Sequence record: MT225100
Reading direction: 5' to 3' (one strand)
Length of the DNA: 50,953 nt
Origin: Escherichia phage Lys8385Vzw
Shown in pieces: positions 45,001 to 50,953 of the stretch (positions within the stretch are counted from its first letter, which is position 1; the number at the start of each line of letters is the position of its first letter). A program made the position numbers.

Positions 45001-48000
45001 AGGGAAGCCTGAAAGTACAGGGATGGTCAGCCAGTGGCGGCAGGGCAGAAGTGGTCAGCGATGCGGAGGGAACCGGAGGTAAGGCAGTGAAGCTGACCAA
45101 GGAAGCCGGTAAAAGCAGCTGGGTGCTGGAGTACGCCGCGGGCAACGGTGCGGCTCTGTTACAGAAAGGGGGGCAGATTCGCTGCCGCTTTAAGGTTTCG
45201 GGAGCGCTGGCTGCGAACCAGTATGTTATGGCGTTTTACTGGCCGGTATCTTCACTGCCACAGGGCGTTGCCCTGACCGGAGACGGGGGGAATAACCTGC
45301 TGGCAGCGTTCTACATCCAGACAGATGCAAAAGACCTGAATGTGATGTACCACAATGCGAAAGTGGCGACAAACAACCTGAAACTGGGAACCTTTGGCGC
45401 ATTTGATAACGAATGGCATACGCTGGCTTTCCGCTTTGCCGGGAATAACAGCCTTCAGGTGACGCCGGTTATTGATGGTCAGGATGGCACACCGTTCACG
45501 CTGACGCAGTCACCGGTCAGTGCATTTGCGGCGGATAAACTGCATGTGACAGACATTACCAGGAATGCGACTTACCCGGTACTGATAGACAGCATTGTGG
45601 TGGAAGTGAACAGCACAGACACTGCGGCATGATAAAAAAACCGCCAGCGACAGGAATGGACGCTGGCGGTGGTGATACCTATGGAGAAAAAATAAAGGAA
45701 CGATACTTTCGTACTCTGGTTTTTTAATGAAAACAGTTCTTATTGTCAACAATAACGGAAAGAAATTATGACATTTCTGAACCAGTTAATGCTGTACTTC
45801 TGTACGGTGGTCTGTGTGCTGTATCTCCTTTCGGGTGGATACCGGGCCATGCGTGACTTCTGGCGCAGACAGATTGACAAAAGGGCCGCTGAGAAAATCA
45901 GCGCCAGTCAGTCAGCCGGAAGCAAACCCGAAGAGCCGCTCATTTAGCGGCAACTTTCTTAATCACACCTTTCGACGAGAAAATCCCATGTCAGAAATTA
46001 CATCCCTGGTCACTGCAGAGGCAGTGAAGGAAGTCCTGCGCTCTGAAGAAGTCCTGAGCGCACTGAAACAAAAACTCCGCCAGAATCTTGAGGCGCGTCT
46101 TGATGCAGAGGTTGATGCCATTCTGGATGAGCTGCTTGGTGTACAGGCAGAGCCACCGACTGAAGCGGGAGATACCACCGCAGAGAGCGGTGAAGTTCAG
46201 CCTGAATCACCGGTCGCCGATGCGACTGAACCTCAACCCGAATCGGTCATGATGCTGTAACGGGGAGTCAGGGCCATCAGTAAACAGCTGCTGGCCTTTT
46301 TCATGTTGTGAGCTTCCGGATTGCGGGAGGCGGGGTATGAACCAGATGGAAAAAATCACAACAGGTGTGTCATACACCACGTCAGCGGTGGGAACGGGCT
46401 ACTGGTTCCTGCAGTTGCTGGACAGGGTTTCCCCGTCTCAGTGGGCGGCAATAGGCGTGCTGGGGAGTCTGCTGTTTGGTCTGCTGACGTACCTGACGAA
46501 CCTGTATTTCAAAATCAGAGAGGACAGGCGTAAGGCGGCACGGGGAGAGTAAGCTGATGAGCAGGAAACTCCGCTATGGTTTATCGGCTGCCGTTCTGGC
46601 GCTGATTGCCGCAGGTGCTTCTGCGCCTGAAATCCTCGACCAGTTTCTGGATGAAAAGGAAGGCAACCACACCACGGCATACCGTGATGGTGCGGGTATC
46701 TGGACCATCTGCCGTGGAGCCACCCGGGTGGATGGTAAGCCTGTTATTCCTGGCATGAAGCTGTCGAAGGGGAAATGCGACCAGGTTAACGCCATTGAGC
46801 GTGATAAGGCGCTGGCATGGGTGGAGAAAAACATCAAAGTGCCACTGACTGAACCCCAGAAAGCGGGTATTGCGTCATTCTGTCCTTACAACATTGGCCC
46901 AGGTAAGTGTTTCCCGTCGACGTTTTATAAACGAATTAATGCAGGAGATCGAAAAGGTGCCTGCGAAGCGATTCGCTGGTGGATTAAGGACGGTGGCAGA
47001 GACTGCCGTATTCGCTCAAATAACTGTTATGGTCAGGTATCCCGTCGTGACCAGGAGAGCGCGCTGGCGTGCTGGGGAATCGACAGATAAGCAGAATATT
47101 TTGCTGAAAAATGACGTTGACCAGCGCGGGCGGATAACACGAAATCCTGCGAACTGGCAAAATGTAAGTGAATAAAGTTAGGCAGATTATTTCACGCAGA
47201 GGCACCGTAATGGTGCCTTTGTCATTTCTGCGCTTCGCACAAGCGTAAATAAACCAAAGAACCTTTCAGGATGAGCCCTGGTGGATAACCGGCAGTGGTC
47301 TGGTTAACCCTCTTTGGGCTGGTTATTCCTGTGCGCAGGGTTCATCACTAAAAGGAATCAACCATGAAAGAGATGATTTCTGTCGATCATGAAATATCCA
47401 TGAGTAGTCTGGATTTTCTGAATAACATTATTAATCCAGCCCGGGCAGAAGCCGGAGAAGTCCCTCATGAACCGCGTAAGTTTCTTGCAAAAATTGAGGA
47501 TGAGCTAGAGCTTGATGGAACCGGAAAAAAATTCCGGTTAAACAATAACCAGACAAGAACGGCATACTATGATCTGGATTTTGACCAGATGATGCTCGTT
47601 GGCATGAGGGAGTCAAAGGCCGTTCGTCGTTCTGTGCTGGCAAGACTCAAAGCGATGCATGGTATTCAGATCCCCCGGACTTTACCTGAGGCGTTGCGAT
47701 TTGCGGCAAAACTGGCTGAACAGAAAGCAGTGCTGGAAAATCAACTGGCAATAGCAGCGCCGAAGGCTGAATTTGTTGATAACTATGTTGAAGCATCTGG
47801 TCTGATGGGATTCCGGGAAGTTGCTAAGTTACTCGGTATCAAAGAAACCGATTTCCGGCTGTTTTTGTTGGAGAACGGAATAATGTATCGCCTCGCTGGA
47901 AAAATGACGCCTTACTCGCATCACCTGGATGCGGGGCGGTTTAGCGTGAAAACGGGCGAGGCGGGCAATGGTCATGCTTTTACGCAGGTTAAATTCACCC

Positions 48001-50953
48001 CAAAAGGTGTTCAGTGGATTGCTGGTCTGCTTGCTGCATGGAGAGCTACCGCAGCATGAAGATGATAAAAATGGACTGGAAATTTTTGCTGGTCTGGCTG
48101 ATTCCGTTTTTATGGGTGGTTGCCCGGTTAATTACTGCTATTAAGAGGTAAAGATGTCAGACAAACTCATAATGCTGGCGAAGGGCCTTTGTGTAATCGT
48201 CGGTATTTCATTTTCACTAATGCTGGTTGCTCTTTTTCTTTCCATAACCTGGATGGCGTTGACTTCGGCAGGGCTGGTGGGGTGAGCATAAACCGAATGC
48301 TTTCCGCGTTTACCGTTATTCTGCTGGTGGTCTGTAGTGCGCTGTGGCTGGCAACAGACCATTACCGTGATAACGCCATCACCTACAAAGCGCAGCGCGA
48401 TAAAAAAGCCAGAGAGCTGGAGCTGGCAAACGCAACCATTACTGACATGCAGCAGCGCCAGCGTGATGTTGCTGCGCTTGATGCCAGATACTCAAGGGAA
48501 TTAGCCGATGCGAGAGCTGAAAATGAAACTCTGCGTGCTGATGTTGCCGCTGGTCGTAAGCGCCTGCGGATCAACGCCACCTGCTCCGGTACCGTGCGTG
48601 AAGCCACCGGCACCTCCGGAATGGATAATGCAACCGGCCCCCGACTGGCAGACACCGCTGAACGGGATTATTTCACCCTCAGAGAGCGGTTGATGACAAT
48701 GCAGAAGCAACTGGAAGGGGCGCAGGAATATATCCGCACTCAGTGCCTGAATTAACAGAGCCAGCTTAATCGCTGGCTTTTTCATATCTGAATTTCATCG
48801 CGCATCTCACGCGCATATCACATCCCCGAGCCTTTCAGAAAGTTGAGCCTGAGAACTGTCGTATATGGTGGCGACCATCTCGGGGCGGCTTTTCTGTGAG
48901 ACAGGCTCAATTTTCTGAAAGGTAAGACGCTATGAACTATCCGACGATTGTTAACGGTATTGATTTCCGCGATCTTGTTTTTGTGACAGGCAACGAGCCG
49001 GTGACGGATACCCGAAAGGTTGCCGTAGCATTTGGCAAAGAACACAAAGATGTATTGCGGAAAACAAGAGCCGTTGTTCAACAATGCTCAAAAGAATTTG
49101 CAGAGCGCAATTTTGCGCTTTGCTATGAAAACAATGAGTTACAGAACGGTAAACCCCAGCCCATATATCGAATGACAAAAGACGGTTGGACGATGTTGGT
49201 ATTTGGTTTTACGGGGAAAGCTGCTATGACCTTTAAGGAAGCGTACATTCAGGCTTTCAACTGGATGGCTGAGCTTATTCAGCAAGGTCTGGCGAATCTG
49301 GAGGCGGAGCGCAACGCTGTAATGCTGGAGTACATGAAAGAGAAAGATGTCGCCAGTATGTCAGGTCGTTTGCTCAATCGCTGGGGCAGGGTGAAGAAGC
49401 CTCAGTTGCTGGCAAGGCTGGACAGGCTGGAGCAGCAGGGGCAGATTGCGTTACCCGGATTTGATAAAGGCATTTCAGCCTGACATAGCCATGCGCCGTA
49501 TCGTCGCCGTATCGTCGCCGTATCCCCGCATTAACAGAGACCGCAGCCCGACAGGGAGACTCCTCTACGAGAGTGTGCGGGATAATCAAAAACGATACAC
49601 ACCGGGGTTTACCGCGTTAACGGAGCGCGGCGTTGTCCCTCATGGTCGCTGGTCCGGTGCGATGGTGGAAGAAACCGGACGATGTGTTACCTCGCAAGCT
49701 CTGTGATGTCATGTGTCTGATTTGTGATTTAAGTCGGATAATTGTCGTTGCCATTAAGCAGAGGATTGATGACCGACAGGGTGGCATTGTTAGAATAAGA
49801 CTTATTCTTATCTGTGCCGGGAATGAAAATGAAAAGAAATCTTCCGTTAATTATTTTGTTGTCTTCTCTGGTTATGGGCTGTACGCAACATAAAACAGAT
49901 ATGCCCCGACAGTTGGTTAAGGCATTACCACAATATCCGGCCTATGCAGCGGCAAATTATATAAAGGGACGGGTTGATGTGAAGTTTGATATTGGTGCTG
50001 ATGGTACTGTCACCCGAATTGAGTTTATCCGTTCAGAGCCGCACCATTTGTTTGATGAGCAGGTTGTAAAGGCGATGGCAAAATGGCGATTTGAGAAGGA
50101 CAGGCCGTGTAAAGGCGTGAAGAAAACGTTTATCTTTAGTCCTTCTGCACCCTGATTATTTCATCAGAAATTAATTATCACTCTGTTGTTATTCTGTACA
50201 TCCCGGCAGGGTAAGTCTTGTTCCGTCGGATATGAAGATGAAATATTGTTGGAGGACAGTGGGTACCTGCTCCTGTAACCGAACGTTCATTTCTCGTTAT
50301 TTGTCATGCTGGCCGGGCGCAGATGCGTTGCATCTGTTGCCAGCCTTCTCCTGCAGGCTTCAATAACCCACGCTGAAAAGTTACCGGACCCTTTATGCTC
50401 AAGGGCTATGTTGATTTGTTCAATTATGTGATTGGGGAAACGGATATTGCGGGTTGTGGTTCTGCGGGTCCGGTTTTTCGATGACATTTTCTTTCCTCTG
50501 GTGACAAGTTATATGACGGGGATTTTACATGGCTGAGCTTCGTACACTCCAGAGCAGAATCAAAACACTGAATACCCGACGGGTGAATATTCTGAAGGGG
50601 GAACAGCGTCGTGTCAGTGGCAGTGCCCGGGTTTCCCTCAAGCGTCATATCTGGCTGAGGGATGCCGGGCAGTGCTGTCTCTGTGGTCGTGTGGTTGACC
50701 TCTGTGACAGTGAACTCGATCACCGCATTGCACTTCAGTTCGGTGGTGGTAATGAGGAGACGAATCTCTGGACGCTCTGCACCGAATGCCATCGACAAAA
50801 GTCTGCTCGTGAAGCGGCGGGTGGTATGCCGGACCCGACGCTGCCGGAGGTGTCCGGAGGTCATGGCAGGGCAGACGATATCATCGGACTGTGACCCGCC
50901 CCGGGGGGGATCATCCGGCGAAAAAAACGATCGCTCCGGACACCGCCCCCCCT

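Follow-up and report, generated by a model that had tools for sequence, protein, structure and literature searches.

A conserved Shine-Dalgarno-pairing leader ahead of the antirepressor-like gene in the lysis region of the Stx1a phage Lys8385Vzw

Escherichia phage Lys8385Vzw (sequence record MT225100) carries an antirepressor-like gene, here called ant, between the endolysin gene (R) and the spanin genes (Rz and Rz1) of its lysis region. We analysed the record over its full 50,953 bp (hereafter "the window"), which is the complete genome of a lambdoid phage that converts its host to Shiga toxin 1a (Stx1a) production, with the terminase genes first. The ant gene is on a discrete, lower-GC cassette inserted between the endolysin and spanin genes, and this cassette includes a conserved, strand-specific leader that pairs with the Shine-Dalgarno (SD) sequence and is common to unrelated accessory genes. 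Both the gene and the order of the genes around it have been described before and are ordinary for Stx phages. The leader is potentially a new part, a predicted regulatory RNA that may mark accessory-gene slots in enterobacterial late operons.

The cassette and its leader RNA

The limits of the cassette can be read from comparisons with other phages and prophages. An otherwise homologous E. coli prophage that lacks ant (L012) has R, two small open reading frames (ORFs) and Rz in this place, and its homology with the window ends at 47176 and returns at 48075, just past the ant stop codon. The GC content of the cassette is 0.43-0.49, versus 0.52-0.57 in the holin (S), R and Rz genes. Phages of the Sp5/933W/Min27/P13374 type fill the same slot with a 189-aa P22_AR_N (+ORF11CD3) protein instead. 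Homology between the window and a genome of the Sp5/933W type (L011) runs from R through the entire 273-nt intergenic region ahead of ant and ends at 47376, i.e., in the fifth codon of the gene.

This 273-nt region, which the preliminary description of this DNA had overlooked, is non-coding and folds much better than shuffled versions of itself (z -4.4). At the 5' edge of the cassette is a terminator-like hairpin (47197-47229 with its tail), which a simple terminator scan did not list, and the structured leader follows. It contains a small hairpin of the form GCGC-N7/8-GCGC (47230-47246) and a Y-shaped hairpin of ~95 nt (47262-47355), whose 3' arm holds the SD sequence AAGG (47352-47355). The 5' end of the Y-shaped hairpin, CCUUU (47262-47266), pairs with the SD sequence AAAGG, 8 nt ahead of the ATG. 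Across leader copies, the probability that the SD sequence is unpaired has a mean of 0.10 and a median of 0.007, versus 0.40 when the upstream part is shuffled.

We built a covariance model (R1) from 23 leader copies. Run on the window, it detects two copies and no more, each on the + strand, and its best reverse-strand score is 14 bits. The second copy is a diverged one ahead of an rha-type regulator gene, in the slot after Rz. Its long stem (48831-48851 with 48902-48922) is 21 nt long and 95% paired, with both arms much changed relative to the first copy, and the second copy as a whole folds at -50.7 kcal/mol (z -5.9). The rha cassette is built in the same way as the ant cassette: a terminator-like hairpin, the leader and then the ORF.

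The small-hairpin region can also be read as an 11-nt tandem direct repeat (CGCGCATCTCA / CGCGCATATCA; 48799-48820 in the second copy and 47230-47246 in the first), and many leader copies have a TTCAC-like motif approximately every 11-12 nt. Proteins could bind to such an array, on the DNA or on the RNA, either instead of the hairpin forming or besides it.

A BLAST search with the leader stretch matched 275 phage records at ~100%, 95% and 78% identity. Matches in Klebsiella phages were partial, and there the leader is ahead of KilA-N genes whose annotated place is between those for the major tail protein and the tape-measure protein. A pattern scan of IMG/VR found copies with exact arms in at least 120 viral contigs, and such copies also occur in species-representative genomes of Raoultella, Entomohabitans, Siccibacter, Serratia, Citrobacter, Enterobacter, Pantoea and Yersinia pestis, the outer arms being identical across genera. 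Among the matches listed, 135 copies represent 39 distinct cores and stand ahead of 102 distinct proteins in at least 10 unrelated clusters: KilA-N, KilA-N+P63C, P22_AR_N, pRha+ORF11CD3, pRha, AntA, two HNH_3 types, a KilAC protein and one unassigned. A recognisable upstream ORF is present for 125 of the 135 copies, with 40 following an endolysin gene, 38 following Rz and 17 following a 257-aa ORF. A few copies follow spanin-like or tail-like ORFs (judged from the sequence or the record annotation). Wherever the gene ahead of a copy could be recognised, the copy was in a late-operon position.

In some phages, HNH_3-type (homing-endonuclease-like) genes of 183-186 aa are found directly behind the leader. 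For this reason, genes may also invade or be exchanged at the leader.

Model R1 also finds diverged copies in other genomes: ahead of rha in phage P22, ahead of an Enterobacter KilAC homologue and ahead of a 143-aa ORF of related Stx phages. The P22 variant (BK000583, L010) is at 39491-39650, scores 57.7 bits and precedes rha, annotated at 39575-40180. The conserved SD-ATG arrangement points to a P22 rha start at 39644 (giving 178 aa). The annotated start, at 39575, falls within the long hairpin and was probably placed too far 5'. The variant ahead of the 143-aa ORF (MFGIFGKKARRAAVEIKKFEKRDL...), ~5.5 kb upstream of the ant leader of those phages, is a GC-rich third type that scores 39-46 bits. 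It retains the lower-stem C mismatch and the bulged A, and its helices differ.

Pairing is maintained across this diversity. Across 71 distinct sequences, 97.6% of cells take part in pairs and both sides have changed in 16 of the 33 pairs, with a covariation score of 0.158 versus a mean of 0.069 for shuffles (0/500 reach the observed value) and at most 0.034 for slid partners; these counts come from an alignment fitted to the model, which favours the structure. None of the 71 distinct copies lacks the CCUU/AAGG (anti-SD/SD) pairing. When folded singly, the canonical, window, rha, P22 and Enterobacter variants all adopt the same architecture, anti-SD/SD helix included. G.U pairs are frequent (one pair is G.U in 67 of the 71 distinct sequences), and because of them the sense strand is the more stable one, by 5-15 kcal/mol over the antisense strand in the four variants (GC-rich included) that we folded both ways.

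One alternative is that the leader acts as DNA, either as a recombination hot spot or module boundary for gene swaps (possibly exploited by the HNH genes) or as an operator array. Leader and ORF recombine independently, with a junction at the start codon and mixed leader/ORF combinations, and this explanation would also accommodate the HNH_3 endonuclease genes, the tandem direct repeat and the identical outer arms, which could reflect recent spread. However, the helices persist through sequence divergence by way of compensatory changes, and the canonical, rha and P22 variants all retain the anti-SD/SD pairing. The strand asymmetry that comes with the G.U pairs, also seen in the model scores (102 versus 14 bits), is a further argument, as a DNA palindrome would be symmetric. 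We consider it unlikely that the leader works at the DNA level.

A more novel reading is that the leader belongs to an undescribed class of cis-regulatory RNA, made up of the small GCGC hairpin and the Y-shaped hairpin that hides the SD sequence, usually with a terminator-like hairpin ahead of it. It would serve as a portable "expression socket" for late-operon accessory genes (Ant, Rha, KilA-N, AntA, P22_AR_N, HNH and others) in temperate phages of Enterobacterales, P22 and the Stx phages among them, gating their translation (e.g., by RNase III cleavage or by way of a phage or host factor) and doubling as a homology patch for gene swaps. Rfam 15 has no match to the leader at the gathering score, nor at E<=5 for four variants, and a literature search for the leader arm sequences found no match in any paper of the collection searched. 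The P1 C4, P22 sar and N15 CA RNAs and the lambda N-leader/RNase III system are alike in that restraint of an ant-like gene is post-transcriptional and RNA pairing hides the ribosome-binding site. They differ in that trans/antisense RNAs act there, whereas here the pairing is in cis, within the ~95-nt Y-shaped hairpin.

The structural evidence for the leader has weak points. The minimum-free-energy fold of the GC-rich variant ("C") leaves the SD sequence free, and some leader variants have weak fold z-scores (-1.2 to -2.0). A MAFFT alignment of the most diverged variants, processed with RNAalifold, misaligned the 3' arm and gave another consensus, so it was not used. We hold the reading as a new RNA class tentatively, as nearly but not quite an even call.

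If the leader does act as a translational gate, it would account for the carriage of potentially toxic regulators within the most strongly transcribed phage operon. The covariance model would then be a handle for accessory-gene slots in enterobacterial prophages, and the leader would offer a concrete mechanism for the mosaic exchange of accessory genes.

The ant-like gene, its slot and its relatives

The preliminary description had placed an Ant/KilAC-like gene here, splitting the endolysin gene from Rz/Rz1, and it was right on both counts. The gene is an intact 231-aa ORF on the + strand from an ATG at 47364 to a TGA at 48059, with AAGGA 8 nt ahead of the ATG. Residues 125-224 match the Pfam ANT/KilAC family (PF03374) at E 2.7e-28, with 98.9 bits versus a cut-off of 25.3 and covering profile positions 1-106 of 108. 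The near-complete protein matches PHROG 63, "anti-repressor Ant" (E 2.9e-58). A set of 5.8 billion proteins contains 1368 homologues across Enterobacterales that are full length and 58-100% identical, with lengths of 230-237 aa in E. coli, Salmonella, Plesiomonas, Cronobacter, Pantoea, Providencia, Citrobacter, Enterobacter, Tatumella and Yersinia, and 2497 cluster representatives (50% identity clusters) match at E<=1e-3. This is no chance ORF, and selection clearly acts on the whole gene.

Some enterohaemorrhagic E. coli (EHEC) lineages (e.g., H94, NZ_CP077519, O111:H8) have shortened modules that cover the first 64% of 47091-48296, and shortened ant-like proteins of 156-165 aa are found in large clusters (P0038 and P0077). 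The gene is decaying in part of the population.

An AlphaFold2 model of the protein (mean predicted local distance difference test score 73.7) has two compact domains joined by a long helix: an N-domain (aa ~12-100), a helical linker (107-131) and KilAC (135-230). KilAC is thus C-terminal, and the N-domain is a separate and exchangeable unit, with some homologues sharing the C-terminal half alone (Roi, KilA) and others the N-terminal half alone. The N-terminal 127 aa match no Pfam family even at E<=10 and no NCBIfam model, and a profile search of PDB sequences gave a single match at E 0.38. Foldseek found nothing in the PDB below E 0.2, its results being weak resemblances to winged-helix DNA-binding proteins (RacA, PadR, TFE-alpha). 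Structural neighbours in BFVD are exclusively other proteins annotated as antirepressor or KilA.

The name "Ant" covers two unrelated families, and the antirepressor label of this gene rests on homology with P1 Ant, not P22 Ant. P1 Ant1/Ant2 is the best characterised homologue: aa 22-223 align with Ant1 124-341 at 37% identity (E 8e-35), an alignment that takes in the N-terminal region as well as KilAC, and similarity to P1 KilA is limited to the KilAC half. Homology with P22 Ant was rejected (best BLASTP E 1.7). P22 Ant has PF10547 and PF10548 (P22_AR_N and P22_AR_C) and no PF03374 match, and what it shares with the gene here is the name and the idea of repressor inactivation by a non-SOS route. 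Located in immI under mnt/arc/sar control, it differs in having its own promoter, antisense control and other Pfam domains, with no sequence similarity.

According to the annotation of the P1 record, Ant antagonises C1 via an Ant1/Ant2/C1 complex, and the size of the ant-like protein fits the Ant2 of P1/P7 (264 aa). The differences lie in the setting and in the partner. P1 ant is in the early immI operon (c4-icd-ant), controlled by C4 antisense RNA and by translational coupling to icd, whereas the gene here is between R and Rz behind another leader, which is not an immI-type setting. It has no nested Ant1/Ant2 products and no counterpart of the N-terminal ~120 aa of Ant1, and the cognate repressor is not of the same type (CI here is HTH_3 + S24).

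In the early-right region of the window, Rfam matches isrK (34602-34678) and C4 antisense RNA (34700-34787), and a pRha-domain ORF follows the C4 RNA, with a probable start near 34869 and its end at 35387. A mechanically called ORF (34242-35387) crosses both RNAs, and a Pfam "Ash" match overlaps isrK/C4. This region resembles P1 immI and the isrK-anrP locus of Gifsy-1, and is arguably a better candidate for a regulated antirepressor in this phage.

The gene order of the lysis region has been seen before. Positions 46300-48800 are 100.0% identical to four Stx1a phages (LC744181-LC744184) and 99.8% identical to AY838795 (a partial record, phage phi-O153), which has the order Q, stxA1, stxB1, yjhS, S, R, ant ("putative antirepressor"), Rz and the same ant allele. 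The RefSeq product name is "phage antirepressor KilAC domain-containing protein". Of 5426 complete E. coli genomes, 194 contain 80% or more of the stretch from R to Rz, and parts of the module reach up to eight copies per genome.

In Stx phages, the R-ant-Rz arrangement has been called "d_ant" (PMC4426718), which was speculated to be an antirepressor under the control of the small RNA 24B_1 (PMC4426718; PMC10732415). The slot is identical (R-ant-small ORF-Rz) in phi24B, 933W, VT2-Sakai, Min27 and P13374, with a ~270-nt leader that is 78-96% identical, but their 189-aa allele is unrelated to the 231-aa KilAC protein, and the proposed 24B_1 target is inside that P22_AR_N-type allele. The phi24B Ant for which functional data exist is another gene again, located upstream of the qut site and with a P22-Ant-like C-terminus. 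When this gene was deleted, pR' was less active once the phage had been induced and the induction kinetics of the phage itself changed, with superinfection unaffected (PMC3064807). A literature search by locus tag (ECs1213 and others) for expression data gave nothing usable, and one for work on rha and IHF gave nothing relevant in the collection searched.

In other genera, KilAC homologues occupy different places, following Rz in Yersinia and the spanin/LysC genes in Enterobacter, with the leader present in each. The space between R and Rz is thus just one permissive slot among several, and its use does not reflect a functional link to lysis. A Providencia contig (L004, 4001-4705) carries a 73%-identical KilAC homologue in an early-right operon, after cro/cII-like genes and before replication genes, where the upstream gap is 65 nt and contains no leader. 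The leader goes with the late-operon position and not with the ant-like gene.

Expression and possible role

The preliminary description had expected ant to be expressed late from pR'. Read-through from pR' by Q-modified polymerase is established lambdoid biology (reviewed in PMC8065619), and the gene is on the + strand downstream of Q and stx1. A scan for sigma-70-like promoters (consensus promoters only) found no + strand site in 45600-49600. Since no such promoter was found and a terminator lies upstream, ant would be transcribed mainly within the Q-antiterminated pR' late transcript, with the Q-modified polymerase ignoring the terminator-like hairpins after R and Rz. Late transcription from pR' is thus a sound inference, but the expectation of simple late expression fares less well, given the terminator-like hairpin and the SD-pairing leader.

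In some respects the cassette is like a moron. As with lambda bor and lom, or P22 rha after gene 15/Rz1, an extra gene of atypical GC content sits between essential late genes, and the two signs of a moron (presence/absence between collinear genomes and atypical base composition) are both found here. P22 rha is in addition in a neighbouring slot and behind a variant of the same leader. Classical morons have, by definition, their own promoter and a downstream terminator, whereas here the scanned region has no + strand sigma-70-like site and the terminator-like hairpin is upstream of the gene.

Translation of ant is probably gated. Because the CCUUU of the long hairpin pairs with the SD sequence AAAGG, the hairpin would restrain translation until it is opened or cut, and RNase III is the obvious candidate to cut it, as the helix is 20 bp or longer. 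Such a gate would limit a regulator that may do harm to small or timed amounts. By homology with P1 Ant1/Ant2, the ant-like protein may act as a regulator-binding factor that sequesters the CI-type repressor late in the lytic cycle, which would keep the phage's own replicating genomes derepressed among many related prophages. Derepression of co-resident prophages would then be a side effect, not the purpose. If the protein is an antirepressor, protection of the phage's own genomes against repressors that related prophages supply would be more plausible than trans-induction, as co-production with holin and endolysin leaves a prophage only minutes. We consider this explanation as a whole (gene, cassette, gated leader and regulator binding) to be possible but somewhat more likely wrong than right. 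Sequestration of a CI-type repressor by the ant-like protein, including the trans-induction role put forward in the preliminary description, would be an analogy with P1; it is our best single guess for the role of the protein, though a rather doubtful one. The roles considered here leave some room for others, or for no role at all.

The following points tell against this explanation. The involvement of RNase III is pure inference and a weak point. The promoter scan covered the sigma-70 consensus only, and a weak or non-canonical promoter is possible in 47223-47261. P1 C1, the target of P1 Ant, is presumably unrelated to the HTH_3 + S24 CI of Lys8385Vzw, so the partner specificity of P1 Ant is not transferable. 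Other KilAC proteins act otherwise: AriS dampens the SOS response, and phi11 Gp07 and P1 KilA are toxic. HNH endonuclease genes and the 143-aa ORF stand behind the same leader, so the slot does not imply a shared "antirepressor" role. For the 231-aa allele, "antirepressor" is a name given on sequence grounds.

The KilAC domain alone does not establish antirepressor activity, so "antirepressor-like", as the preliminary description had it, is apt for the domain and says too much about activity. The same domain is present in P1 KilA (annotated "can kill host"), in HK022 Roi and in Listeria AriS, and these relatives suggest other roles. For EHEC, the effect of the ant-like product on prophage induction, and hence on Shiga-toxin output, is conceivable in either direction.

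The first of these roles is that of a DNA-binding or host-toxic regulator of the KilA/Roi/Rha kind, altering host physiology (e.g., cell division or IHF-dependent processes). Besides the shared domain, the KilA-type domain of S. aureus phi11 Gp07 is reported to inhibit E. coli growth (PMC5944126). The genes behind the leader are mostly of the KilA-N, pRha, AntA and P22_AR_N types, and a tight translational brake suits a toxic product. The winged-helix resemblances are the sole ones from the PDB and would fit DNA binding, but all of the Foldseek matches are at E>0.2. Similarity to P1 Ant also reaches beyond KilAC, whereas similarity to KilA does not. We regard this role as unlikely.

The second role would be like that of AriS, the sole KilAC protein whose domain has been dissected experimentally. 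In this Listeria protein, KilAC alone blocks the SOS response and mitomycin-induced lysis, and homologues whose N-terminal domains differ retain this activity (PMC9043618), so it restrains SOS instead of promoting induction. By analogy, this is a credible precedent for an effect on co-resident prophages opposite to trans-induction: the ant-like KilAC domain would dampen the host SOS/RecA response and suppress co-resident SOS-inducible prophages during the phage's own cycle. The architectures are the same in outline, with a variable N-domain followed by a C-terminal KilAC. However, AriS is distant, coming from a Firmicutes phage, and its N-domain is of the AntA, Bro-N or pRha type, none of which was detected here. 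At native levels, moreover, AriS promoted the lytic pathway of its own phage with no measurable SOS inhibition (PMC9043618). We consider an AriS-like role quite unlikely.

Least probable of all is that ant is a bona fide late antirepressor expressed from pR' whose role is to trans-induce co-resident heteroimmune prophages: the KilAC domain, the full-length homology with P1 Ant1/Ant2, the position downstream of Q, the heavy polylysogeny of EHEC (with the multiple copies of module parts mentioned above) and the Salmonella trans-acting antirepressors that coordinate the induction of several prophages (PMC3121763) speak for it, but the genes of those Gifsy antirepressors are LexA-controlled and lie next to a dinI homologue, ~1.3 kb past the replication genes and away from the late operon (PMC3121763), and deleting the other Ant of phi24B altered the induction kinetics of its own phage and not superinfection (PMC3064807). 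The product would also be made together with holin and endolysin, minutes before lysis, when a prophage could hardly complete its cycle. The SD-occluding leader argues against plain high late expression, and the protein is not similar to P22 Ant, which is reported to act as an antirepressor on lambda CI too.

Layout of the phage genome

The features discussed above are listed in Table 1 together with their neighbours. The preliminary description had also missed the two tiny hydrophobic ORFs between ant and Rz. The start of the 31-aa ORF overlaps the ant stop codon (ATGA), so ant reads directly into it, and the backbone of ant-less prophages is homologous to this ORF from 48075 onward. It is apparently chimeric, with a cassette-derived start and a remainder that corresponds to a backbone ORF, which is longer in ant-less prophages. 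Prophages that have ant and those that lack it alike keep the 43-aa ORF in the R-Rz interval, and L011 and L012 carry annotated homologues. The endolysin has a hydrophobic N-terminus and is probably of the signal-arrest-release type.

Table 1. Coordinates of the cassette, leader copies and other genes (positions in the window unless another sequence is named)
Feature	Position	Strand	Evidence or remark
Low-GC accessory cassette, ~0.9 kb (terminator hairpin + leader + ant ORF)	47177-48074	+	Comparison with L012, GC
Terminator-like hairpin (CAGAGGCACC / GGTGCCTTTG), cassette 5' edge	47197-47221, T-rich tail to 47229	+	Inverted repeat, fold
Structured leader, copy 1	47213-47370	+	Covariance model 102.6 bits; fold z -3.4 to -4.4
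ant-like gene, 231 aa	47364-48059	+	Pfam PF03374, PHROG 63
Intrinsic-terminator-like hairpin AGCCAGC-TTAATC-GCTGGCT + T run, directly 3' of Rz	48759-48783	+	Scan listed it on -
Structured leader, copy 2, diverged, ahead of rha	48783-48938	+	Covariance model 100.4 bits
rha-type regulator gene, pRha + ORF11CD3, slot after Rz	48932-49483	+	Phage_pRha E 4.6e-26; ORF11CD3 E 6.9e-24; TIGR02681
GC-rich leader variant copies	L037 3258-3407; L075 9809-9958; L030 9310-9459; L020 2105-2254; L039 9573-9722		
Integrase	24174-25271	-	
CI-type repressor (HTH_3 + peptidase S24)	32687-33340	-	
Q antiterminator	40607-41401		Pfam Antiterm
stx1A	end at 42916		
SASA esterase (nanS-p/yjhS type)	43800-45632		Lysis region next
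Holin, S21 / class II type, lysis-cassette gene 1	46337-46552	+	Pfam Phage_holin_2_1, E 9e-33
Endolysin R, phage lysozyme	46557-47090	+	Pfam Phage_lysozyme, E 9.6e-25; phrog_7 endolysin
Hydrophobic 31-aa ORF	48056-48151	+	Weak phrog_6632 match; "hypothetical" in PhiR5_1
Hydrophobic 43-aa ORF	48154-48285	+	phrog_4906, E 3e-24
Rz i-spanin	48297-48755	+	Pfam Phage_lysis, E 1e-49
Rz1 o-spanin, embedded in Rz	48508-48693	+	Pfam Rz1, E 1.5e-19

PADLOC defence-system models gave no match for ant, the two small ORFs, rha or the lipoprotein-like ORF with a TonB_C domain that is found between rha and the end of the window (49814-50155), at approximately the position of bor in lambda and Min27. An HNH endonuclease gene (50529-50894) is just ahead of the genome end/terminase region.

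Two further Rfam matches fall in the gap between stx1B and the nanS-p/yjhS esterase gene: STnc100 at 43274-43487 on the + strand (190.7 bits), and the anti-GcvB small RNA AgvB at 43489-43548 on the - strand (56.6 bits, barely at the gathering score).

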